Of a DNA stretch of 52,937 bases, positions 1 through 46,356 are shown in pieces. The notes beneath the pieces were generated by a model. That model made no database searches. It was given only the letters and a program-made list of their open reading frames with translations, and was not told the DNA's origin. Source of the DNA: Bacteroidales bacterium (lineage in GTDB: Bacteria > Bacteroidota > Bacteroidia > Bacteroidales > UBA7960); contig JAWOCF010000228.1 in assembly GCA_046483935.1 (NCBI GenBank), forward strand, positions 1-52,937. The letters run 5' to 3'. The translations under genes were made by a program, and so were the position numbers. Every line of letters starts with the position of its first letter. Positions within the stretch are counted from its first letter, which is position 1.

Positions 1-38
1 CCTCTATAAATATCACGGAAGGATCAAATAACCGTTCT

Positions 39-1334
39 TTAAGGAACGGAAACTTCTGTAGCCAACCGTTGCCGGATTCTGCGAACGGTCTGCACGAAGA
101 CTATCCGCAGGCGTTTGCCATATAAGAGGGATGATCCGATGCACACCAGTGAAAATAGAAATACCGTATAAGGCACCCCGATAGCTTCTGAAACCCCTCC
201 GGCCAGCAGGCTGCCCAAAGGGGTGATGCCCATAAAAGTAAGGCTGTAGAGCGACACGACCCTGCCGCGCTTGTCGTTATGACTGATAATCTGCAGTATG
301 GTATTGGTACTGTTGAAATGTACGATCATGCCAAAGCCGGTAATGGCCAGGGCTGCCATCGAAAGGTACAGGTTGGAGGACAAGGCGAACAGTCCCAGGG
401 CGAGGGAAAAAATCAGGGCGGTGCGGAATATGGTTACCGGAATGGTAGCAACCTTTTTGCGTGCAGCCAGGTAAAATGCCCCGGTAAGTGCTCCTGCACC
501 CAATGCCCCGGTGAGGATACCCAGCAATTCGGAATCTCCCTGTAAAACATCGGCTGCAAATACCGGCAGCAAGGCCTGAAAAGGAAGCCCGAAGAAGCTG
601 CTCAGGGCAACCAGCATGAGCAAATACCGCAAAGGTTTTTCATTCCATGCATAATGAATGCCTTCTTTGAGCTGATTCATCACCGAATCACGAACCTTAT
701 GAATAGTTTTTACCGGGATGCGCATGGCCATCAATCCGGCAATGACAGCCAGAAAACTCACGCCATTGATAAAGAAGCACCACCCCTCACCTACTGTGGC
801 AATCAGCACCCCACCAATGGGAGGTCCCACAAACCGGGCCATATTGTATAATGATGAATTCAGTGCGATGGCATTGGTCAGGTCTTCGGGATTGGGAATC
901 ATATCAGGCACGAACGACTGCCGGAAAGGGGTGTCGAAAGCCAGGATCACGCCATTGACCCCGGCAAGCAGCAGGATATGGTATACCTTGATGGCATCGG
1001 TGAGCACCAGGGCAGCCAGTATAAAAGCCACCACCATAGCCGCAGCCTGTGAAAGGATGATCACCCGCTGGCGGTTCATTCTGTCGGCCAGCACACCCGC
1101 AAAAGGAGTGATAAACAGCGAAGGGATTTGCTGAAAGAATGCCACTGTGCCCAGCAGCAGGGCGGAGCCGGTAAGCCGGTATACCAGCCATCCCATGGCA
1201 ATATTCTGCACCCATACCCCAATCAGCGAAATGCTTTGCCCTCCATAATACAACCTGTAGTTGGGATACTTCAAGGCCCTGAACATATGCTTCAGGGTGT
1301 CGGGAGGAATTGGAAGGCCGCGAAATATGATCAC
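39..1334 (-). CDS. MFS transporter (about 12 TM); start may be GTG 1334 or ATG 1286
   Basis: Begins FRALKYPNYRLYYGGQSISLIG; MFS motif A-like GVLADRMNRQR; C-terminal RGRVVSLYS; many hydrophobic helices. Confidence 0.9.
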   Translation of the reverse strand: MIIFRGLPIPPDTLKHMFRALKYPNYRLYYGGQSISLIGVWVQNIAMGWLVYRLTGSALLLGTVAFFQQIPSLFITPFAGVLADRMNRQRVIILSQAAAMVVAFILAALVLTDAIKVYHILLLAGVNGVILAFDTPFRQSFVPDMIPNPEDLTNAIALNSSLYNMARFVGPPIGGVLIATVGEGWCFFINGVSFLAVIAGLMAMRIPVKTIHKVRDSVMNQLKEGIHYAWNEKPLRYLLMLVALSSFFGLPFQALLPVFAADVLQGDSELLGILTGALGAGALTGAFYLAARKKVATIPVTIFRTALIFSLALGLFALSSNLYLSMAALAITGFGMIVHFNSTNTILQIISHNDKRGRVVSLYSLTFMGITPLGSLLAGGVSEAIGVPYTVFLFSLVCIGSSLLYGKRLRIVFVQTVRRIRQRLATEVSVP

Positions 1335-1420
1335 CGGTTCATTTTTTGATGGGCAAACTTACAAAAATTCTCTCTGCCTTAGCAGGGCAAAGGCAAATAG
1401 GCCATTTTCATAAAATCTTT

Positions 1421-2509
1421 TCAGGGTTTCAGGAGTTGTTGGTCGCCCACCAGCTCCAGGCCCGCTTGTTTGGTTTGTCCTTCAAAAAGGACATTTCCCT
1501 GGGGATCTTCCAGGCACACAAACAAGATAGCATCCAGGCTCTCATGAATCATGCGGTTCATCTGCCCGGCCAAAGGGGCCATCAGCTCTCCGCGCACCCC
1601 CTTCAGGCCCCGGATGGTTAACCTGAAGCCACGGTCTTCAATAACGATCTGGATCTGATCAGGATCGCCATGTATTTCAACAATTTTTGCAGAAGTATAG
1701 GTGGCAAACCGCAAGATTTCGTCATTAAAAAGAAGATAGCCCAGAAAGCCGGTGAATGATCCTGTAATCCAGGGTACATGAGCTACCGACAACATAAATG
1801 AAGCCTTATCATGATTCATAAATGAATTGCTTTGCATCCATATCCAGGCTTTTGGCATGCTGCTGCCCCAGTCTTTTTCAATATAACCCCTGCCATTATC
1901 AAAAGATAATGTATCCTGCTGATGGACCAATACTCCCTTCAACCGGTGATCAAGGCTCACCACACCATGATAAGTCTGCATAAAAGGCACAAAACGGTAC
2001 CACCCCATAATGCCAGGCCAGAACAGGGAAACGGGGTAGCGGCTGGATTCTGAAAAACCAATCTGCCCGCGAATATGATGTTCGTCATCTTTGAGATCTA
2101 CCGAAAACCCTTCACCCGAGAAGATATTGCCGGCGATGCGGACTTCAAAATGGCGCCGTGAATACGAAAAGGCCTCCGGAGGAAACCTGAAATAACTGGT
2201 TTGACCAGTGCTCCCATCAATTACCTGCACGAAAGCGTGTGCGTCGGTATCCAAAGAGACTCCCGGAATGAAAGCATAACGCAGGGAACCATCGTCCGAT
2301 ACAATTTTATAATACCACCCTTCATAATACCTGGTGGTGCGCATGTTTCCCTGAAAAAAAGAGGGATTCCATATTTTTTTCAGATCGTAAAAGGAAAAAC
2401 CATTAGAATGAAGTTTGTGATGAGGCGAAGTTTGAGAAGCGCCCTTTTCCGGCCATTGGACTGACAGCCAGTGAATCAAAATAAATATTCCAAGAAATGA
2501 TTTATTCAT
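1421..2509 (-). CDS. Tocopherol cyclase family protein with signal peptide-like N-terminus
   Basis: Motifs YYEGWYYK, GIMGW, HGVVSLDH, GRGYIEKDWGSSMPKAWIWMQSN. Confidence 0.8.
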   Translation of the reverse strand: MNKSFLGIFILIHWLSVQWPEKGASQTSPHHKLHSNGFSFYDLKKIWNPSFFQGNMRTTRYYEGWYYKIVSDDGSLRYAFIPGVSLDTDAHAFVQVIDGSTGQTSYFRFPPEAFSYSRRHFEVRIAGNIFSGEGFSVDLKDDEHHIRGQIGFSESSRYPVSLFWPGIMGWYRFVPFMQTYHGVVSLDHRLKGVLVHQQDTLSFDNGRGYIEKDWGSSMPKAWIWMQSNSFMNHDKASFMLSVAHVPWITGSFTGFLGYLLFNDEILRFATYTSAKIVEIHGDPDQIQIVIEDRGFRLTIRGLKGVRGELMAPLAGQMNRMIHESLDAILFVCLEDPQGNVLFEGQTKQAGLELVGDQQLLKP

Positions 2510-2618
2510 TTTTTGATATCTTTTATCTTCATACGATCAAGATAAAGATAATAAATAAAATAGGGTTAAGGAAAACCAGCCTTCGATCCGGACAGCAAAC
2601 AACAAAATATCCAGCCAA

Positions 2619-3905
2619 CTACCTGATCTTTCCATATTTTTGATGTTGCTCTGTATGAATACACTTCAGGCAATTAAGGCCGCGGTTGCATTTGCGGTAA
2701 GCCTCCTCAAAACTGCGGCCGGTAGCACTGATGGCAAATAGCCTGGGGCCAGGCTGATACACATTATCCTGAACCTGAAAGCAGGATTGCCAGAGGTTAA
2801 TGCCCAGATCCGCAATTTTCTGATCATCTATCTGTATCAGGATATTGCTATTTGTCATAGCAGATTCATTAGGTACCACATATTTACAAACAGTAGCCAG
2901 AGGCTCAAATTCAACAGCTATTTCATCCAGCCCTTCTGTGGCAATGGCCCTGAAGATTTCCAGCAAATCAGTTTTTAATAGCGGCAACACGTTCAGGGCC
3001 GCAGGATCATCAGGGCCTACATTAATGCCAAGAAGCCGGATGCCCTGATGAGTAATCATAAATTTCGCTGAGAGAAACCCCTTATAATTTTCAGAATATT
3101 GTTCCCGTAAAGCAGTCAGTATTCTGCGGATAATGAGCAAACTGTCATCCAGGGACTGCTGATCAAGAAACGGAAGCATGTGGCTGGCATCTGAATAGGA
3201 ACCCATACCAGGAGCATTTACAGTGACCGGATCATTCAAAAGATTGAACTCTTTGACAACAGGAAAGGGAACCACCGTTTTCCCATCAGTAAGTACCTGA
3301 ACGACATATTCCTGGCCCAACAATTTGGGCTCAAGCACCACACAAGGCATGTTTCCGATGTTTTGATCAAAAATCTCTTCAACGTATGCCTTGGTTTGAC
3401 TTTTATCATTTAGGTGTATGCCCTCAATCCTCACTCCTGCTTGTAGAGTAATGCCCGCAGGTTTTACCACGAGGGCAAAATCAGCCTGGCTGATATAATC
3501 CAGGGCCTGTTCCTTCTCAAAGAAAACCATGAAATCCGGATTGCCTTCAATATCGTTATCTTGCATCAATGATCGTAAAAAACCCTTGTCGGCTTCCAGC
3601 CAGGTGCACAGTGCGGATGGTCCGATGGTAGGAATGCCTATTTCATTGAAGTAATTAACGGCACCCTTCAATAGGGTTTTCACTGAAACCACCACAATCA
3701 TTTCAATCTTGTTTTTCTCCACAAAATCATCAATAACATCCAGATCAGCAATGTCATCAACCTCATAATGAAAAGAAAGGTCAGCAATGCCGTTATTCAG
3801 TTTATCCATGAGGGCATATACCGTAACATTTTTATTTTTTGTTAAGGTCCTGGCAATAGCCTGTGTCCTTCCTCTGCTGCCAATCAGTAATACTCTCATC
3901 GCCAA
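2619..3905 (-). CDS. Phosphoribosylamine-glycine ligase (PurD)-like ATP-grasp protein, archaeal type, with degenerate catalytic motifs
   Basis: Colinear with PurD (RVLLIGS, IGPS, VVKPAG, GMGSYSD, ATVCKYVVP), but the GGREHA, GGKGV, QDHKR..GPNTGG and EFNARFGDPE motifs are altered. Confidence 0.75.
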   Translation of the reverse strand: MAMRVLLIGSRGRTQAIARTLTKNKNVTVYALMDKLNNGIADLSFHYEVDDIADLDVIDDFVEKNKIEMIVVVSVKTLLKGAVNYFNEIGIPTIGPSALCTWLEADKGFLRSLMQDNDIEGNPDFMVFFEKEQALDYISQADFALVVKPAGITLQAGVRIEGIHLNDKSQTKAYVEEIFDQNIGNMPCVVLEPKLLGQEYVVQVLTDGKTVVPFPVVKEFNLLNDPVTVNAPGMGSYSDASHMLPFLDQQSLDDSLLIIRRILTALREQYSENYKGFLSAKFMITHQGIRLLGINVGPDDPAALNVLPLLKTDLLEIFRAIATEGLDEIAVEFEPLATVCKYVVPNESAMTNSNILIQIDDQKIADLGINLWQSCFQVQDNVYQPGPRLFAISATGRSFEEAYRKCNRGLNCLKCIHTEQHQKYGKIR

Positions 3906-4216
3906 TATTTTTTACCATGAAACATATTCCGCGAAGCCTTCCTGCTTCTCTGACAGGCTTTTTGAATAACCTACACATATAAGTATTAATTAATAAATAA
4001 ATTGTGTATTTTTTTCTTCAAATTGCCTGTTTTATTCCTTCAACGGATATTTGTCAGCATTATTATCACCAATGAAATAAAAAAGAAATAAAAGAAGTCA
4101 GGCAAGCAGTTTTAGGAAAATCCTCCGGCAAGTATCTGCTCAAATGCAATGAAATTTTAAAAGAACAACAACCATCATTTTCTCTCTACAGCGATTATCT
4201 TTGGAAAAAAAATAGC

Positions 4217-4864
4217 ATGCCAAGAAAGATCATTATTTCTACTGCTTATCTGCCACCTATTGACTACATGATGTGGTTATATTTTTCTGATGAGGTGTTG
4301 ATCGAAGCCTATGAGACTTACCCCCGGCAAACCTGGCGCAACCGGTGTCGGATTGTCTCGGCCAATGGATTGCTGGATCTTTCCATTCCGGTGGAAAAAC
4401 CTCACAACAAGCCAGCTATCACTAAAGAGGTAATGATCAGCACGCGACATTCCTGGCAGAAAAACCACTGGCGTGCCATCCAGTCTGCCTACAGCAAGTC
4501 GCCCTTTTTCATTTATTACAAAGATGCATTTGAAGCAATGTACAATCAGCCCCCTCCTGCTAAACTCCTTGATTGGAACTACAAGCTTCTTGAAGTAATT
4601 GCCTCCCAAATCATTCCTTTGCCTCAAATAAAATATACGCAGGAATATCAGAAGGTGCCTGCCGACATGAAGGATCTGCGGGAAGCATTTTCGCCCAAGG
4701 CACACAGGCAGCAACAAGACATCAGCCACCAGCTGCCTGAATATTACCAGGTGTTTTCTGCCAGCATGCCTTTTCAGCCCAATTTAAGCATCCTGGACCT
4801 GCTGTTTAACATAGGCCCAATGACCATTGACTATTTGCGGGAAAACGCCGAAAAAGGCCTTTAA
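4217..4864 (+). CDS. WbqC family protein
   Basis: STAYLPPI, RQTWRNRC, HWRAIQSAYSKSPFF, YYQVF...FQPNLSILDLLFNIGP. Confidence 0.9.
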   Translation: MPRKIIISTAYLPPIDYMMWLYFSDEVLIEAYETYPRQTWRNRCRIVSANGLLDLSIPVEKPHNKPAITKEVMISTRHSWQKNHWRAIQSAYSKSPFFIYYKDAFEAMYNQPPPAKLLDWNYKLLEVIASQIIPLPQIKYTQEYQKVPADMKDLREAFSPKAHRQQQDISHQLPEYYQVFSASMPFQPNLSILDLLFNIGPMTIDYLRENAEKGL

Positions 4865-6930
4865 TTCATCTTAGGATAGGCAACTCTCACATGGTTGATG
4901 TTCATCAGCCGGCGCTTGAATATTTTCTTGATGGTGGTAATGTCCTGAAAAGTAATATCGGCCTTATCGAACTGTTTCTCCACGATCAGGTTGTCAATGA
5001 TGGTTTCTACCAGTTCATTAATGCTGTTCTCATCAGGCTTTTTCAGGCTGCGTGAGGCGGCCTCTACCGAATCGGCCATCATAACCACGGCTGTTTCCTT
5101 ACTGAAAGGACGTGGCCCGGGATAAGTAAATGCCGCCGGATCAATTTCCTCTCCCGGATTCTGCTTCTGACGCATGGTATAGAAATATCGCGCCGTAGTG
5201 GTTCCATGATGGGTGCGGATGAAATCAATGATATACTCAGGAATATTGTGCCTGCGTGCCTTCTCGATACCCCCAATCACGTGATTAATAATGATTCGGG
5301 CGCTCTCTTCATAAGAAATATCATCATGTGGGTTCATTCCTGAGGTTTGATTCTCAGTAAAATAAATCGGATCATCCATTTTCCCGATATCATGATATAG
5401 TGCACCGGTTCGGGCCAGCAGGGCGTTTCCACCAATGGCATAAATGGCTTCCTCCGAAAGATTGGAAACCTGCAGGGAATGTTGAAAAGTACCAGGCGCC
5501 TGCAGGCTAAGCTCACGAAGCAACTTATTGTTGGTGTCGGCCAGCTCAAGCAAAGAGAAATCGGTAGGCATCCCGAAGAGTCTTTCAAAGAGGTAAATCA
5601 GGGGGTAGGCAAATAAAGTAAGCGTCGCTCCCCCGGCAAAATACCCAAAATTGATCCATTGGATGTCATCAAAGGAACCTGTTTGCGACAAGGACCATCC
5701 GAAAAACACTGCCGAATAAGTCAGGAATATCAAACCTACGGTGATCAGCAACTGGGAGCGCCGGCGCAGGCTGGCCATGCTCATGATGGCAATAATACCA
5801 GCAAGGAACTGCAGGAACACAAATTCAAAACTTCGGGGAATCAGAAATCCAATAAGAATAATGGTGATAATATGTACATAGAGCGCCAGCCGGTTGTCGA
5901 AAAATGCCCTGATCACAATAGGGACAATACTAATGGGTAGCAGGTAAAGCCAATCTACATTATACCGCACCACCAGGCTGGTGGTAAGGATCATGATCAC
6001 GATCGACAACAAAATCAACAGGATCTGCCTGTTGTTTTGAAAAACATCCCTTCGGAAAACAAACAAAAACATGGCCAGAACCACCATGGTAATACTCACC
6101 AGGATCAACTGACCGGCATACTGCAGGTTTTGCATACCAGCCTGTCCACGCTGACGGGTATATTCGGCTTTAAAGCTTTCCAGTATCTGGTACTTTTCAG
6201 CCGTGATCAGCTCCCCCTGAGAGATAATCTTTTCACCTTGCTGAACCATGCCCCTGGTTACGGGAATGCTTTCCAGGCGGGTTTCCAGGGCCAGATTGCT
6301 CATCTCTTCATCATAAATGATATTCGGAGCCAGTGCCATTCCCAGCAGGGGCTCCACAAAAGGATGATATTGTTCATCGATTCGCTGCAACATCTGGGTA
6401 GCGCGCTGATAGGCCGCCGTTAGTGTAAGAAAATCTCCCAGCCTGTGGGTAGAGGCGACCTGACCTTCCAGGACGCGGATCTCGAAGGAGGAAGGTTCCT
6501 CCTGAAATCGTTCCTCAATAGAGATAATACCTGTTGAGAACAATGAATCCAATATCTGCACACTGCTTTTCAGAACTCTTTCCAGATGGGCTGCCGGGAG
6601 TTCATTCTCGCTGGCATATTCCGGAAAACTCTCACGGAAAGTGGCCTCAAAGGAATCCATTTGCCGGGCAGCCACTACCGTGTCGCGCATAAAAAAAGGG
6701 CGGAACTCTTCCTGCACAGCATTTTGCTCGGCCTCCAACTCTTCCTGGGTTTTGAGGATGGCAAAATCAAAAGGGGCAATCAGATCATTATACAACCAGG
6801 GCCTGGCTTTATGATATTCATATTCAAAGCCAGCTTGCCTGGGAAATAACTGAACGATGATAAAAATGCTTATCAGAAAAAGAACTGCCTTATACAGTTT
6901 GGAAAAATTAGCCTGCAACCAACGGATCAT
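4861..6930 (-). CDS. 7TM-HD phosphohydrolase (PgpH-like, candidate c-di-AMP phosphodiesterase)
   Basis: N-terminal TM, extracellular domain, 7 TM helices, then APGTFQHS, YHDIGK, HHGT, MADSVEAASRS. Confidence 0.88.
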   Translation of the reverse strand: MIRWLQANFSKLYKAVLFLISIFIIVQLFPRQAGFEYEYHKARPWLYNDLIAPFDFAILKTQEELEAEQNAVQEEFRPFFMRDTVVAARQMDSFEATFRESFPEYASENELPAAHLERVLKSSVQILDSLFSTGIISIEERFQEEPSSFEIRVLEGQVASTHRLGDFLTLTAAYQRATQMLQRIDEQYHPFVEPLLGMALAPNIIYDEEMSNLALETRLESIPVTRGMVQQGEKIISQGELITAEKYQILESFKAEYTRQRGQAGMQNLQYAGQLILVSITMVVLAMFLFVFRRDVFQNNRQILLILLSIVIMILTTSLVVRYNVDWLYLLPISIVPIVIRAFFDNRLALYVHIITIILIGFLIPRSFEFVFLQFLAGIIAIMSMASLRRRSQLLITVGLIFLTYSAVFFGWSLSQTGSFDDIQWINFGYFAGGATLTLFAYPLIYLFERLFGMPTDFSLLELADTNNKLLRELSLQAPGTFQHSLQVSNLSEEAIYAIGGNALLARTGALYHDIGKMDDPIYFTENQTSGMNPHDDISYEESARIIINHVIGGIEKARRHNIPEYIIDFIRTHHGTTTARYFYTMRQKQNPGEEIDPAAFTYPGPRPFSKETAVVMMADSVEAASRSLKKPDENSINELVETIIDNLIVEKQFDKADITFQDITTIKKIFKRRLMNINHVRVAYPKMN

Positions 6931-9952: not shown

Positions 9953-10519
9953 ATAGCTACACCATTTAATCCCAGGCCCAGAAGGCGTTTTGTAAAAGCC
10001 GAAGACCCTCACAAGATCAACGAAAGAATCAAAGCCCCGGTAGTACGGGTAGTAGGTGATAATGTTGAAGACGACATCTACCAGATCCGTGAAGCGCTGA
10101 CCATTGCAGAAGAGTTGGGCCTTGACCTGGTGGAAATCGCTCCCACTGCCAACCCACCGGTTTGCAAGATCATGGATTACAAGAAGTTTCTTTATGAGCA
10201 AAAAAAGAAACAAAAAGAGATCAAGGCCAATGCCTCGAAAGTGGTGGTAAAAGAAATTCGTCTTGGCCCCAATACCGATGACCATGACTTCAACTTCAAG
10301 CTGAAGCATGCCCTGAAGTTTCTCGAAGAAGGTTTTAAACTAAAAGTTTATGTTTTCTTCAAAGGCCGTTCGATCATTTATAAAGAAAAAGGTGAGGTAA
10401 TCCTGTTGCGCTTTGCCCAGGAGATCGAAGAATTCGGGAAGGTAGAACAACTGCCTAAGCTGGAAGGCAAACGGATGATCATGCTGGTGGCTTCCAAAAA
10501 AGGGCCTAAAAAAAGTTAA
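9953..10519 (+). CDS. infC: Translation initiation factor IF-3 with non-canonical ATA start (ORF track truncates it at 10115)
   Basis: Frame is open from ATA 9953: (M)[34 protein letters not shown]...[21 protein letters not shown]...KEIRLGP; lies between thrS and rpmI. Confidence 0.93.
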
Positions 10520-10564
10520 TGTTCAGTTAATGTTCAAATAAATAACCTGTAAATTGTTTTTGTA

Positions 10565-10759
10565 ATGCCTAAAATGAAAACCAAATCCGGTGCCAAAAAG
10601 CGGTTTTCTCTAACCGCAACCGGACGCATCAAACGCAAACATGCGTACAAGAGTCACATTCTGACCAAGAAGTCCAAAAAGAGAAAAAGAAACCTGACCC
10701 AAACCACCCTGGTGAATAAGTCAGATGAGAATAACATTAGAGCCATGCTGGCGATTTAA
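10565..10759 (+). CDS. rpmI: 50S ribosomal protein bL35
   Basis: [14 protein letters not shown]...[11 protein letters not shown]. Confidence 0.99.
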
Positions 10760-10774
10760 ATTTTTTTTAACCAT

Positions 10775-10825
10775 TTTGAATTAGCTGGAAAAGATTTCCC
10801 GCCGCAAGGGAAGCGCTAATCAAAA
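10775..10825 (+). promoter_or_regulatory. Structured rpmI-rplT intergenic RNA (candidate bL20 autoregulatory element)
   Basis: Outer stem TTTTGA(A)TTAGC/GCTAATCAAAA, inner stem TTCCC/GGGAA, purine-rich internal loop; ends 14 nt before the rplT ATG. Confidence 0.4.
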
Positions 10826-10839
10826 ATAAACTTAGAAAC

Positions 10840-11184
10840 ATGCCAAGATCAGTTAACACTGTTGCTTCAAGAAACAGAAGAAAGAAGCTGTTAAAGCTCA
10901 CCCGCGGGTATTTCGGAGGCCGTAAAAACATCTACACGGTAGCCAAGAATACCTGGGAAAAAGGACAACAATACGCCTATCGCGACAGGCGCAACAAGAA
11001 AAGGGAATTCAGAAAACTCTGGATCCAGCGCATCAATGCCGCTGTTCGCCAGCACGGAATGAGTTATTCCGTATTTATGGGAAAAATCAACGCTAAAGAT
11101 ATCCAGATCAACCGCAAGGTACTTGCCGATCTGGCCATGAACAATCCAGAGGCTTTCAAAGCCATTGTGGATGCCGTTCAATAG
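10840..11184 (+). CDS. rplT: 50S ribosomal protein bL20
   Basis: [43 protein letters not shown]. Confidence 0.99.
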
Positions 11185-11195
11185 AACATTCTGAA

Positions 11196-11237
11196 CATAA
11201 AAAAAGGAGACCACCGTGGTGGTCTCCTTTTTTTATG
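11196..11237. terminator. Bidirectional intrinsic terminator between rplT and the NUDIX gene
   Basis: Perfect 20-bp inverted repeat CATAAAAAAAGGAGACCACC-gt-GGTGGTCTCCTTTTTTTATG with A and T tracts on both sides. Confidence 0.9.
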
Positions 11238-11253
11238 CCCGCCCCGGTCATTA

Positions 11254-11919
11254 TCATTGCCGGATTATCTCCAGGAACTCGGAAATCATCATGGCAGTGG
11301 CACCCCAGATGGTGTATCCATTGATTGAGAAACAAGGTGTTTGCATCGAAAAGCCGGAAGCAAGATCTATCGTTTTCATCACCTTATTTCCGGGAATAAA
11401 AAATGCCTCTAACTCCACTTCGATAATTTTAGCAACTTCCAGGGGGTCAGGAACAAAGTGGGGCTTCTGATATGAAATGCCCAGAAAAGGGCTGACTATA
11501 AAGTTGCTGGGGGGAATAAACAGGTTAGACATCCGGCCTACTACCTCTACCTGCCCAGGGGGTACCCCTACCTCTTCGAATGTTTCGCGCAAAGCAGTAT
11601 ATTCCAGATCGGGATCTGTTCGCTCATGCCGGCCTCCCGGAAAGGAGATCTGCCCGCTATGAGTGCCTCTGTATACCGATCGCTGAATGAATACCGTTCC
11701 TACGCGTGAATGTTCCATCGGAAAAAAAAGAAACAATACACTGCTCTTCACAGGAGCCAGTCCGTGCCCCAGGTTGCTGATCTCTTCCCTGCGGATCAGG
11801 GGAGCCATTTTCAGCTGAGCCTCCAGGCCGGGTAGCTCCTTCCAGGAGATGGCTTTCAAATGCTTTACAAAAAGGTCAAAGTGTTCCAGAAAAACAGGCA
11901 GGTGATTCACAGAAGTCAT
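11254..11919 (-). CDS. NUDIX hydrolase, CoA pyrophosphatase type
   Basis: HSGQISFPGG..E..D......ALRETFEEVG Nudix box; IWGATAM. Confidence 0.92.
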   Translation of the reverse strand: MTSVNHLPVFLEHFDLFVKHLKAISWKELPGLEAQLKMAPLIRREEISNLGHGLAPVKSSVLFLFFPMEHSRVGTVFIQRSVYRGTHSGQISFPGGRHERTDPDLEYTALRETFEEVGVPPGQVEVVGRMSNLFIPPSNFIVSPFLGISYQKPHFVPDPLEVAKIIEVELEAFFIPGNKVMKTIDLASGFSMQTPCFSINGYTIWGATAMMISEFLEIIRQ

Positions 11920-11981
11920 GTATTGGCTATTTTTGAACTTCAGTATTCAAAATTAAACATAAAAAACCTGAATGGACACGT

Positions 11982-13295
11982 TCACTTTTGTGCCAGCGCT
12001 TTTTTATAAACCATCAGGCATCGCTCACGGGCCATTTTATGGTCTATTATCGGTTGCGGGTACTCAGAGGTTCCATGCTCCGGAACCCATCGTTTAATGT
12101 ATTCCAGCTCATGATCAAATTTCTTCTGTTGCTGCATGGGATTGAAGATCCTGAAATAGGGCGATGCATCCGTACCCGATCCGGCACACCATTGCCAGCC
12201 ACCATTGTTAGATGACAATTCATAGTCGAAAAGCTTCAGGGCAAACCAGGCTTCCCCCCAGCGCCAATCAATCAGTAAATGTTTGCTTAAAAAGCTTGCT
12301 GTAACCATGCGCAGCCGGTTGTGCATAAATCCGGTGGCCGACAATTGACGCATGCCGGCATCTACCATAGCATAACCTGTTCTACCGCCTTTCCACCTGT
12401 CAAATTCTTCTTCATCATTCCGCCACTGGATCAGGTCATATTCAGGCTTAAAAGCATGATTGACCACCTTGGGGAAATGCCAAAGCACCATCGCATAAAA
12501 TTCCCTCCAGATCAATTCATTCAGAAATGTTTCATTCCATTCCATGGCTTTTTTCACCAGCTCACGGATGCTGATGGTCCCAAAACGCAGGTGGGTTCCC
12601 ACGTGAGTGGTGCCGTCTATGGCCGGAAAATCACGCCTTTGATCATAGCTGCGGATGGTATCCTCATGAAGGTCAGCCTTCGGAAACGGGATTGCCGTTG
12701 AAGGCCTGTCAGCACTCCTGATAAAAGGAAACCGGGATATCTTCCCCTGGTAAAAATGGCTGCTCAGCTCCCGGGAAGAGAAACCCTGCAGATGCTCCTT
12801 GCTCAACACATGCTTCCATTGCCGGCTATAAGGGGTAAATACTTTGTAAGGAAATCCGTCAGGTTTCAGCACATCGTTTTTCTCCATGATCAGATGATCA
12901 ACGGATGAAAGTAATGGGATATGATGAGCATCCAGAAAAAGACGCACCTGTTGGTCACGGTCAAGGCCATAGGGCTCATGATCTGAATTGCAGAACACAC
13001 TTTCAAAGTTATAATTATCAAGCAGCTCCTGAAAGACCGCGAGGGGTTTTCCCTGCTTTACCAGCAAGCCGCTCCCTGTTTCCCGCAAAGCCTGATCCAA
13101 CTCCTCCAGAACATGATGTATAAAATCAACACGATGGTCCCCGGCCGGCAGCTTATCTAAAATCTGAGTATCCAGAATAAATAAGGGCAATACATTATCT
13201 GAAGATCTCAGCGCATAATACAGGCCTTTGTTGTCGTGCAGGCGTAAATCACGACGAAACCAGAAAATGGAAACGGTGGGCTTATCACTGGTCAT
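11982..13295 (-). CDS. phrB: Deoxyribodipyrimidine photolyase (class I CPD photolyase)
   Basis: WFRRDLRLHDN, ELIWREFY, GRTGYAMVDAGMRQL..TGFMHNRLRM, SNNGGWQW, FRIFNP. Confidence 0.93.
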   Translation of the reverse strand: MTSDKPTVSIFWFRRDLRLHDNKGLYYALRSSDNVLPLFILDTQILDKLPAGDHRVDFIHHVLEELDQALRETGSGLLVKQGKPLAVFQELLDNYNFESVFCNSDHEPYGLDRDQQVRLFLDAHHIPLLSSVDHLIMEKNDVLKPDGFPYKVFTPYSRQWKHVLSKEHLQGFSSRELSSHFYQGKISRFPFIRSADRPSTAIPFPKADLHEDTIRSYDQRRDFPAIDGTTHVGTHLRFGTISIRELVKKAMEWNETFLNELIWREFYAMVLWHFPKVVNHAFKPEYDLIQWRNDEEEFDRWKGGRTGYAMVDAGMRQLSATGFMHNRLRMVTASFLSKHLLIDWRWGEAWFALKLFDYELSSNNGGWQWCAGSGTDASPYFRIFNPMQQQKKFDHELEYIKRWVPEHGTSEYPQPIIDHKMARERCLMVYKKALAQK

Positions 13296-44115: not shown

Positions 44116-46356
44116 CTATTCGCCCATCATGCCGGGGATCACGCTTTCAAACAGCTGATCCAGCTCAGCAATGGTGCCAAAGCTTTCGCCATCGACCACG
44201 GCTTCCTGGCCGGTGACTTCACCCAGCAGGGAGAACTCCACATCGCTTTGTGCCATCAGCTCAGCAAACTCGCCTTCTTTGTCGGGGCTGACGGTCACCA
44301 CCACCCTGCTCTGGCTTTCGCCGAACAGGAAGGCATCCTTGCGGATCTGGTCGTCGGTATCGATTTGGAAGCCCAGCTTGCGGTGCCTGCCCGATTCAAA
44401 CAAGGTGGTAAACAAACCACCATCGGCCACATCATGTGCCGAGCGGATCAGCCCGTTGCCGATCAGCTCCTTGACGACCTGTTGCAGCTCATACTCTTCC
44501 TCCAGTTCAAACCATGGAGCGGGAGACAGCTTCACCTGGTGATAACTGTAGAGATATTCGGATGAGTTAATGTCGTTTCTCGACTGGCCCACCAGGTAGA
44601 TCAGGTCGCCCTGCTCGCGGAAGGCAATGCCGGTCTGCAGCTTCTTGTCCATCACCACGCCCATCATCCCGATTACAGGAGTGGGAAATACCGGATCGGT
44701 TTTTCCGGCAGAAGATGCTTGGTTGTAGAAGCTGACATTTCCGCCGGTTACCGGGGTCTTGAATTTCTCGCAGGCCAGGCTCATGCCTTTGATGGCACTG
44801 ACAAACTGCCAGTACACCTCAGGGTTGTAGGGATTGCCGAAGTTCAGGCAGTTGGTGATGGCCGAGGGCTCGCCCCCGCTGCACACGATGTTGCGGGCCG
44901 CTTCCGACACCGCAATGGCGCATCCTTTTTCAGGATCGGCCTGCACGTACCGGGCGTTGCAATCAACGGTCAATGCCAGGGCCTTCTGGGTGCCCTTGAT
45001 GTTTACGATACCGGCATCTGAAGGATCGTTGGTGCTCATGTTTTTGGTGCCCACCATGGTGTCGTACTGCTGGATAACCCATTTCTTGGAGGCCACATTG
45101 TGGCTGCCCAGAATAAAACGGGCCACTTCCTTCAGATCTTCAGGCTGCTGCACCTGGTCAATATGAAACTTGTCTTTCTCTTTAAAGTAAGCCGGCTCGC
45201 GGTACTCACGATCGTATACCGGGGCACCGCCACCCAGCACCAGAGAATCGGCAGGCACTTCAGCCACCAGCTCCCCGTGCATGTAATATTTCAGGATGTC
45301 GCCTTCAATCACTTCACCGATCTGAACACAGTTCAGGTCCCACTTGTCGAACACGTCCTGCACTTCCTTTTCACGACCTTTTTTCACCACCACCAGCATG
45401 CGTTCCTGCGATTCGCTCAACAGGATCTCGAAGGGCTTCATGTTATTCTGGCGCATGGGCACCTTGTCGAGGTGAATGATCATGCCGTGTTCGCCCTTGG
45501 CCGACATCTCGCTGGTGGAGCAGGTAATGCCTGCAGCACCCATATCCTGCATGCCGATCAGGGCACCGGTCTTGATGACCTCAAGAGAAGCTTCCAGCAG
45601 TAGTTTTTCCTGGAAGGGATCGCCCACCTGTACAGCAGGGATCTTGTCGGCCGAGGCTTCGGTGATGTCTTCTGAAGCGAAGGTAGCACCGTGGATGCCG
45701 TCTTTTCCGGTTGAGGAACCCACAATGAATACAGGGTTCCCCACTCCGTATGAGGTTGCCGAGATGGTATTCCCGGTCTTCACCAGGCCTACCGACATGG
45801 CATTTATCAAAGGGTTGGTATTATAACATTCATCAAAAGCTACCTCGCCCCCTACTACAGGAACACCGAAAGCATTGCCATAGTCGGCAATGCCTTTTAC
45901 CACCCCTTTGAGCAGCCATTTGGTGCGTTCGAGGTTGGGGTTGCCAAAGCGCAACGAGTTGAGCTGTGCGATGGGCCGGGCCCCCATGGTGAAAATATCG
46001 CGGTTAATGCCACCTACTCCCGTGGCAGCCCCCTGATAGGGCTCCAGGGCCGAAGGATGGTTGTGTGATTCAATCTTAAAGGCACAGGCCAATCCATCAC
46101 CCAGGTCAACCAGGCCTGCATTCTCATCGCCGGCTTCCACCAGCAGGTGTGGCCCCTTACGCGGCAGGGTCTTTAGCCACTTGATGGAATTTTTATAGGA
46201 ACAATGTTCAGACCACATCACCGAGTACACACTCAATTCGGTGAAGTTGGGCTCACGACCTAGAAAGTTCAGGATCTGATCATATTCTTCGGGCAGCAGG
46301 CCAAGTTTTTGGGCAGCCTCCAGCCCTGAAGGGGAATTCTGATTGGATGAATCCAT
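44116..46356 (-). CDS. purL: Phosphoribosylformylglycinamidine synthase subunit PurL (small type)
   Basis: [56 protein letters not shown]. Confidence 0.97.

Follow-up and report, generated by a model that had tools for sequence, protein, structure and literature searches.

The window analyzed here is a stretch of 52,937 nucleotides from a member of the Bacteroidales (GenBank contig accession no. JAWOCF010000228.1, assembly GCA_046483935.1, hereafter G000). On its minus strand, at 2619..3905, it carries an intact gene that is homologous along its whole length to purD, the gene for glycinamide ribonucleotide (GAR) synthetase, and that has a degenerate active site. The gene is, on good support, not a GAR synthetase gene; it is, again on good support, a degenerate and partnerless member of a horizontally spread family of PurD-like proteins coupled to GNAT acetyltransferases. 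We further consider its product a probable pseudoenzyme, that is, an orthologue of PurD-like ligases that has degenerated into a selected, non-catalytic PurD-fold protein. Its loss of activity is inferred from the residues, and it would presumably have a selected role in binding or scaffolding.

Frame, family assignment, and fold of the PurD-like gene

Read from the TTG at 3905, the open reading frame (ORF) comprises 428 aa. The likely start is the ATG at 3899, two codons after the TTG, where the homologues and the corresponding database protein (P0001, 426 aa) begin. The product is collinear with PurD from end to end. Pfam recognizes GARS_N (60 bits) and GARS_A (100.9 bits), both above their cut-offs, and GARS_C below its cut-off (13.2 versus 34.8 bits). 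The NCBIfam model TIGR00877 matches over positions 1-409 of 425 with 245.4 bits and so does not reach its cut-off of 288; the canonical PurD proteins of relatives score 444-526 bits with the same model. Eleven of the 12 distinct PDB sequence matches are GAR synthetases, the best being human GARS (2qk4, E 6.7e-31). An AlphaFold2 model of P0001 has a predicted local distance difference test score (pLDDT) of 92.2 and a predicted template modeling score (pTM) of 0.92, and the 14 best PDB entries for this model are all GAR synthetases, with template modeling (TM) scores of 0.78-0.88. P0001 is thus predicted with confidence to fold as PurD still. A sequence-only reading of this stretch had described an intact 428-aa frame that follows PurD throughout, and the ORF call, Pfam, TIGR00877, and the PDB matches bear this out.

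Active-site residues

In the alignment of P0001 with its homologues, the GGREHA-type loop of PurD has become GSRGRTQA, KPxGLTGGKGV has become KPAGITLQAGV, QDHKR has become KEFNL, GPNTGGMG has become V-NAPGMG, (E)xNARFGDPE has become (G)INVGPDDPA, and VPEGYP has become VPNESA. Every one of these changes had been listed in the sequence-only reading. Residue roles were transferred by alignment from the GAR synthetases of Aquifex aeolicus, human, and Cryptococcus neoformans, as given in the available text of three reports (PMC8880213, PMC2978367, PMC8449271). In the A. aeolicus enzyme, ATP is contacted by K103, K143, E185, E192, and K214, glycine by D212, R287, and E292, and Mg by E100 and K214 (PMC8880213). 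The roles described for the human enzyme cover R13, E14, R292, D295, E297, D217, and K219, as well as the conserved B-loop GLAAGK (PMC2978367), and the phosphoribosylamine (PRA) site is listed, with human Tyr274 as a glycine contact, in PMC8449271.

Set against these roles, P0001 keeps E102, K105, K146, E190, E197, N293, D298, and R386 (P0001 numbering) and has changed at 11 positions: E12T, H13Q, K154A, D217E, K219N, R220L, Y277S, E291G, R295G, G297D, and E300A. The two ATP lysines and the adenine/ribose glutamates are kept: K105, K146, E190, and E197 stand opposite A. aeolicus K103, K143, E185, and E192 in the alignment. At the glycine site, four of the five residues (human Asp217, Arg292, Asp295, Glu297, and Tyr274) are changed (D217E, R295G, E300A, and Y277S), and D298 is the only one retained. 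In the B-loop, GLxxGK has become GITLQAG, with Ala for the Lys (K154A), and the Mg/ATP Lys of QDHK is now Asn. Three PRA-site residues persist, namely the GGRE Arg, the GDPE Asp, and the Arg of the C domain; Thr stands in place of the GGRE Glu, and Gln in place of the His after it. In the E-x-N motif the Asn is kept (N293) and the Glu has become Gly (E291G); other members of the clade described below retain this Glu, which belongs to a metal-binding motif of ATP-grasp enzymes.

Taken as a whole, P0001 shares with PurD (EC 6.3.4.13; 2qk4, 2yw2, 1gso) the four-domain ATP-grasp fold, the ATP-contacting Lys and Glu residues, and N293, D298, and R386 (from E-x-N, GDPE, and the C domain, respectively). 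It differs in falling under the equivalog cut-off, in lying remote in the tree from the PurD of its own phylum, and in having replacements at four glycine-site positions (Asp, Arg, Glu, and Tyr), at the B-loop and Mg/ATP lysines, and at the glutamates of GGRE and E-x-N. The archaeal-type group has 114 columns with a conservation of 90% or more, and P0001 deviates in 48 of them, 27 in common with its clade and 21 specifically in the lineage of P0001 and its closest relative, P0002.

Phylogenetic position and the GNAT-coupled family

Among 5.8 billion proteins, the closest relatives of P0001 are P0002 (81% identity) and P0003-P0006 (46-54%), and the next matches are at most 40% identical. The more distant matches have canonical motifs and, where named, belong to Woesearchaeota, Micrarchaeota, Methanoplasma, or Patescibacteria. 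Between P0001 and the canonical PurD of Bacteroidota, identity is no more than 24-28%. Two maximum-likelihood trees were computed, rooted at the midpoint and supported by the Shimodaira-Hasegawa-like approximate likelihood ratio test (SH-aLRT). Tree 1 has 67 rows (every third of P0007-P0120 plus eight named matches, leaving out loci L006 and L007, where the filter found no canonical ORF), and tree 2 has 70. In both, canonical Bacteroidota PurD is separated from P0001 by branches totaling 1.8-2.4 changes per column, and P0001 lies inside a 10-row clade with an SH-aLRT of 98. This clade lies within a 19-row family (SH-aLRT of 99 in tree 2 and 100 in tree 1) that includes three fusions of a PurD-like protein with a GNAT, and in tree 2 the family is nested in a radiation of archaeal, DPANN, and candidate phyla radiation (CPR) type. 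The stem leading to P0001 and P0002 is long (0.45-0.57).

The sequence-only reading had proposed a foreign, archaeal-type PurD homologue. This is supported by the trees, in neither of which P0001 nests among ordinary Bacteroidota PurD, and by the rarity of the PurD-like paralogue, which occurs in 3 of 77 genomes of the taxonomic family, G000 included. The structural wordings it had recognized as archaeal (GMGSYS..LPFL, NVLPLLKTD, and ATVCKYVVP) likewise agree with the consensus of the archaeal-type matches. Its remark that the gene and its flanks are AT-rich holds to a moderate degree: the gene has a GC content of 0.437 and a GC content at third codon positions (GC3) of 0.448, the 3rd and 2nd percentiles, respectively, among all genome ORFs of 200 aa or longer (n = 1475; mean GC 0.501, standard deviation 0.034), and the flanking spacers have a GC content of 0.31-0.32.

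In all seven other loci that could be evaluated (L022, L023, L024, L026, G017, G051, and L061), a GNAT gene lies directly downstream of the PurD-like gene. L056 and L057 are the G017 and G051 loci, respectively, and L025, which is cut at the GNAT position, was not counted. Fusions of the two are found in P0161, P0212, and P0222, 3 of the 15 representative-library proteins scanned with Pfam; six of the 15 are fused to purine or folate enzymes. For four of the GNATs (three separate, one fused), the best NCBIfam match is EctA, diaminobutyrate acetyltransferase, with 58-80 bits, below the cut-off of 120.6. A PurD-like ATP-grasp gene and an EctA-like GNAT gene make up a conserved two-gene cassette, naturally fused in three proteins. 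The cassette stands beside a normal purD: five Bacteroidota metagenome-assembled genomes (MAGs) encode clade members, and all five also hold a canonical purD (464-481 bits, versus 328-357 bits for the four complete paralogues, the fifth being cut by a contig end). Canonical purD and the PurD-like paralogue are both present in the family relative G017 as well.

The GNAT-associated proteins (P0004-P0006, P0135, the G017 and G051 copies, P0161, P0212, and P0222) fall in the same tree group as P0001 (SH-aLRT 98-99) and have in common with it derived wordings such as QSCF, PRLFA, and xPGMG, a Ser in place of the glycine-contacting Tyr, and the loss of the B-loop Lys and the GGRE Glu. They differ in keeping the counterparts of K219, E291, R295, and E300 and in keeping the EctA-like GNAT, all of which P0001 is without. 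P0004-type members, with those four counterparts in place but no Lys in the B-loop, no Glu in GGRE, and no Tyr to contact glycine, therefore look like working ligases with different substrates.

The syntenic orthologue and the missing partner gene

The closest syntenic relative is L061, a 298-kb metagenome contig with the gene order of the window. The flanking proteins are 89% (thrS), 71% (NlpC), 76% (7TM-HD), 63% (WbqC), 63% (tocopherol-cyclase-like), and 76% (MFS) identical between the two. The PurD-like protein of L061, P0138 (425 aa, intact), is the positional orthologue of P0001: it lies, as P0001 does, with WbqC on one side and the tocopherol-cyclase-like and MFS genes on the other, is only 38% identical to P0001, and in tree 2 groups with P0001 and P0002 (SH-aLRT 89). 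It differs in what surrounds it and in what it has lost. Between the PurD-like and tocopherol-cyclase-like genes, L061 has genes for a GNAT, a Dps/ferritin, and a Fur protein (L061:7309-8773); the window has at this place a 109-bp spacer (2510..2618) instead of about 1.8 kb, with no remnant of the three genes detected. No GNAT gene adjoins the PurD-like gene in the window, and no homologue of the L061 GNAT, Dps, or Fur was found anywhere in G000 (best tblastn E value, 0.001, for GNAT). P0138 no longer has the counterparts of E102, K105, and E197, nor any of the QDHK stretch, a set of losses different from that of P0001, so no common catalytic core is conserved in the P0001/P0138 lineage. In L061, too, no other gene of the locus has a GC content as low as those of the PurD-like and GNAT genes.

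A soil-run contig about 17% divergent from the window (run X2, record 3) has 1380 letters where the window has 263 (2423-2687), at the junction of the tocopherol-cyclase-like gene and the 3' end of the PurD-like gene. This contig may be an intermediate that retains part of the GNAT/Dps/Fur segment. The sequencing runs carry the habitat labels hypersaline lake, soil, and salt lake.

Proposed history of the gene

The history that we favor would begin with a horizontally acquired PurD-like ATP-grasp ligase, which in other Bacteroidota stands beside a normal purD and forms a two-gene cassette, or a fusion, with an EctA-like GNAT. Loss would have come in two stages; the immediate ancestor would already have been a GNAT-coupled PurD-like ligase and not a true PurD. 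In the G000 lineage the ligase chemistry would then have been abandoned, with the loss of the B-loop Lys, the Mg/ATP Lys, the E-x-N Glu, and the glycine-site Arg, Glu, and Tyr. The G000 copy would also have lost its GNAT partner, the neighboring Dps and Fur being absent too. P0001 would since have been kept open by relaxed purifying selection, most likely as a non-catalytic PurD-fold protein.

Several observations weigh against this history. Two ATP lysines, two ATP glutamates, N293, and D298 are retained in P0001, and inactivity is deduced from residues only, so nucleotide binding or an altered chemistry could persist. P0138 and P0001 are 43% and 49-50% identical, respectively, to the catalytically complete P0004 and 38% identical to each other; since each is nearer to P0004 than to the other, the pattern looks like parallel relaxation, with no sign of a shared new function. 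The trees are quick ones with SH-aLRT as their sole support measure, and P0138 sits in them on a long branch (1.6). Synonymous divergence (dS) from L061 has reached saturation, with values of 1.3-3.3 in the flanking genes, and the Nei-Gojobori method (NG86) gave no dS for the PurD-like gene itself. The low GC3 of the gene is compatible with weak expression too. Finally, no canonical purD was found in G000, where no other TIGR00877 match exceeds 33 bits, and the PurD-like gene is formally the only purD homologue of the assembly, although other purine genes are present: purL in the window at 44143-46296 (859.5 bits), purH (508.8 bits), purN (147.7 bits), purC (169.1 bits), and candidate purM-like and purF-like genes.

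A bolder version of the same history, possible and at the same time rather doubtful, is that the PurD fold was recruited twice, once as a GNAT-coupled ligase making an undescribed N-acetylated amide and then, in the genus to which this genome belongs, as a PurD-fold protein without catalysis that selection maintains for binding to a nucleotide, a metabolite, or another protein. The amide would perhaps be osmolyte-like and built on a diamino acid, in Bacteroidota of salt lakes and soil. If this were so, the window would encode a bacterial pseudoenzyme of the ATP-grasp type whose forerunner was a core enzyme of purine synthesis.

It is unlikely, in our estimate, that P0001 is instead an active ATP-grasp ligase of new specificity, one that still binds ATP and couples another acid-amine pair by means of substitute residues. 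Such an enzyme would make sense of the retention of K105, K146, E190, E197, N293, D298, and R386, of the selection acting on the ORF, and of the former active-site motifs, which hardly differ between P0001 and P0002 although the two proteins as a whole are 19% divergent; the P0004-type parent clade seems to be a functioning ligase in which the acceptor site has changed. However, it would have to operate after the joint loss of the B-loop Lys, of K219, to which PMC2978367 and PMC8449271 ascribe roles in Mg/ATP binding and the transition state, of the E-x-N Glu, and of the Arg proposed to stabilize the acyl-phosphate. The GNAT partner is gone as well, and P0138 has lost other residues (among them the counterparts of E102, K105, and E197), which leaves the lineage with no conserved catalytic core in common.

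Selection and expression

Another reading is that the gene is decaying slowly without remaining function, its open frame being a leftover or held only by constraints that are weak or indirect. Several points speak for this. In the comparison with L061, the PurD-like gene has an NG86 nonsynonymous divergence (dN) of 0.63, against 0.07-0.36 for the six flanking genes, and so evolves faster than any of the other six. G000 and L061 have each lost catalytic residues, in parallel but not the same ones, the partner gene was lost, GC3 is low, and GARS_C and the C-terminal motif are eroded. Nevertheless, open frames are kept in P0001, P0002, P0003, and P0138, which are 38-81% identical, and with flanking dS values of 1.3-3.3 a neutral frame of 426 codons would not be expected to persist. 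P0001 and P0002 differ by a single in-frame indel at 81% identity, and their substitutions avoid conserved columns: identity is 88% in conserved columns versus 66% in variable ones (Mann-Whitney p = 7e-4). No indel falls within the ORF among the indels listed for the related contigs of a soil run, two RNA-library contigs (see below) match the gene, and the fold, as noted above, is predicted with confidence. Decay without function is, on these grounds, improbable.

The ratio of dN to dS (omega) of the PurD-like gene would be roughly 0.2-0.5 if a flank-like dS applies, a value far from neutral but only a rough bound because dS is saturated. These tests, all of them indirect, support purifying selection on the PurD-like frame that is relaxed but real. 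The sequence-only reading had held that the gene was kept full length after losing the residues of a GAR synthetase and had named frameshifts and a dN/dS near 1 as signs of simple decay. The changed residues, the intact orthologues, and a dN well below the saturated dS of the flanks all agree with that view.

A hint of transcription, and a weak one, comes from two short contigs of salt-lake metatranscriptome libraries that match the 5' part of the ORF (3615..3855) with 0 and 1 differing letters; their strand is unassigned, and DNA can occur in such libraries. A promoter scan around the PurD-like gene gave nothing above chance, and no terminator-like site was found between it and the tocopherol-cyclase-like gene.

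Canonical purD and the purine pathway

The sequence-only reading had conceded that it would be refuted if the gene were the only purD in the genome and complemented a purD mutant. For the assembly, the first of these is formally what was found, but its force is undermined by the absence, together with purD, of purQ and the RNase HII gene. The G000 assembly consists of 287 contigs and is 79.5% complete. In a survey of 41 genomes (G000 and 40 relatives), 34 have a purD match above the cut-off, including 29 of 29 high-quality genomes. Besides G000, six genomes have no purD above the cut-off, four of them with no match (68-82% complete) and two with the gene split at contig ends. In the relatives G010 and G017, the genes after canonical purD are those for DUF6427, PurQ, a glycosyltransferase, and RNase HII; the contig of G023 is shorter, and only purD and DUF6427 are visible. 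In G000, the best purQ match (TIGR01737) reaches 19.6 bits against a cut-off of 177.8, RNase HII (PF01351, rnhB) has no match, where a control search was positive in 14 of 14 genomes, and tblastn with the proteins of the relatives found no counterpart of DUF6427, purQ, the glycosyltransferase gene, or the RNase HII gene. The G017 flank that is present in G000 (contig C168) has different neighbors there. Since G000 is without purQ and RNase HII as well, both of them neighbors of purD in relatives, a gap in the assembly is likely; the simplest reading is that the whole purD/purQ/rnhB block lies in the unassembled fifth of the genome.

That the PurD-like gene is the only, and still working, GAR synthetase gene of the organism, having displaced a bacterial purD, is very improbable. 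In its favor, TIGR00877 matches nothing else in G000, other genes of the pathway are there, and the gene lies two genes from an MFS gene (MFS_3, 39..1334) whose orthologue (69% identity) sits one gene from canonical purD in G010 and G023. Against it, the gene has changed at K219, at the Lys of the B-loop, and at four of five glycine-site positions, and canonical purD accompanies the clade members in five of the five MAGs searched and in G017. The assembly is also incomplete and has neither purQ nor RNase HII, which adjoin purD in G010 and G017, and the MFS gene and the PurD-like gene are not arranged as the MFS gene and purD are in G010 and G023. A simple in-situ swap of purD for the PurD-like gene was also considered and rejected, since order and orientation differ from those of G010 and G023 and L061 shows that the slot belongs to the cassette.

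Related systems and implications

The only precedent found for extra PurD-like proteins without Mg sites is that of the haloarchaeal proteins rrnAC0307 and Hlac_1553, which are second homologues beside a normal PurD (Brown et al. 2011, PMC3261824). In the available text of that report they have a divergent N-terminal loop and no Mg-binding sites, and its authors judged them not to be real GAR synthetases. Compared by description only, they resemble P0001 in the divergent N-terminal loop and in their salt-adapted hosts; they differ in having no recognizable GARS_N and no Asp of R[LF]GDPE, both of which P0001 keeps. No description of a GNAT-coupled PurD-like family or of a PurD-derived pseudoenzyme was found in the literature searched.

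The case matters first for annotation. Pipelines call such proteins phosphoribosylamine--glycine ligase, as one source does for P0003, and by this name the purD gap of an incomplete MAG would be wrongly closed. For biology, the locus points to a PurD-derived ligase family that is coupled to an EctA-like acetyltransferase and some of whose hosts come from saline habitats. For evolution, it would illustrate how an enzyme fold sheds its chemistry stepwise while the frame stays under selection; two syntenic orthologues that have lost different residues make it a useful natural test case for the origin of pseudoenzymes.

Neighboring genes and other observations

Upstream of the PurD-like gene, an AT-rich spacer (3906..4216, GC 0.31) separates it from the divergently transcribed WbqC-like gene (4217..4864, plus strand); in a relative from run X2 this spacer has a 20-base deletion at 3927. 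The WbqC-like gene is the edge of a block (WbqC, 7TM-HD, NlpC-P60, thrS) that is wholly or largely present in all 12 relatives examined. Synteny with the family relatives stops at this gene, and none of the 12 has a PurD-like, tocopherol-cyclase-like, or MFS homologue beyond it. Downstream, the syntenic neighbor is the tocopherol-cyclase-like gene (1421..2509, minus strand, 362 aa), whose product matches Pfam PF14249 with 59.7 bits, has a hydrophobic N terminus, and has no NCBIfam match. The MFS_3 transporter gene that follows it is also on the minus strand. By synteny with L061, positions 1-40 of the window probably join the end of G000 contig C179 (about 10233-12394), which ends inside a second copy or a fragment of the MFS_3 gene that is 74% identical to the L061 MFS gene.

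An Rfam search of bases 1-5200 gave a single match, a chance snoRNA (E 0.4). DNA for P0002 was found neither in the scans of genome and metagenome contigs nor in the 77 family genomes. The representative library also contains PurD homologues of other kinds. P0143 is an archaeal-type PurD of 782 aa with a large insertion, intein-like by its look, in the GPNTGGMG loop. P0140, P0151, P0157, P0165, P0181, and P0185 are archaeal-type PurD proteins with canonical motifs that are fused to PurF-like, 5-formyltetrahydrofolate cyclo-ligase, formyltransferase, and FolD domains. In P0224, P0239, and P0242, which lie outside the clade of P0001, several catalytic residues are replaced, and degenerate PurD paralogues may have arisen more than once.

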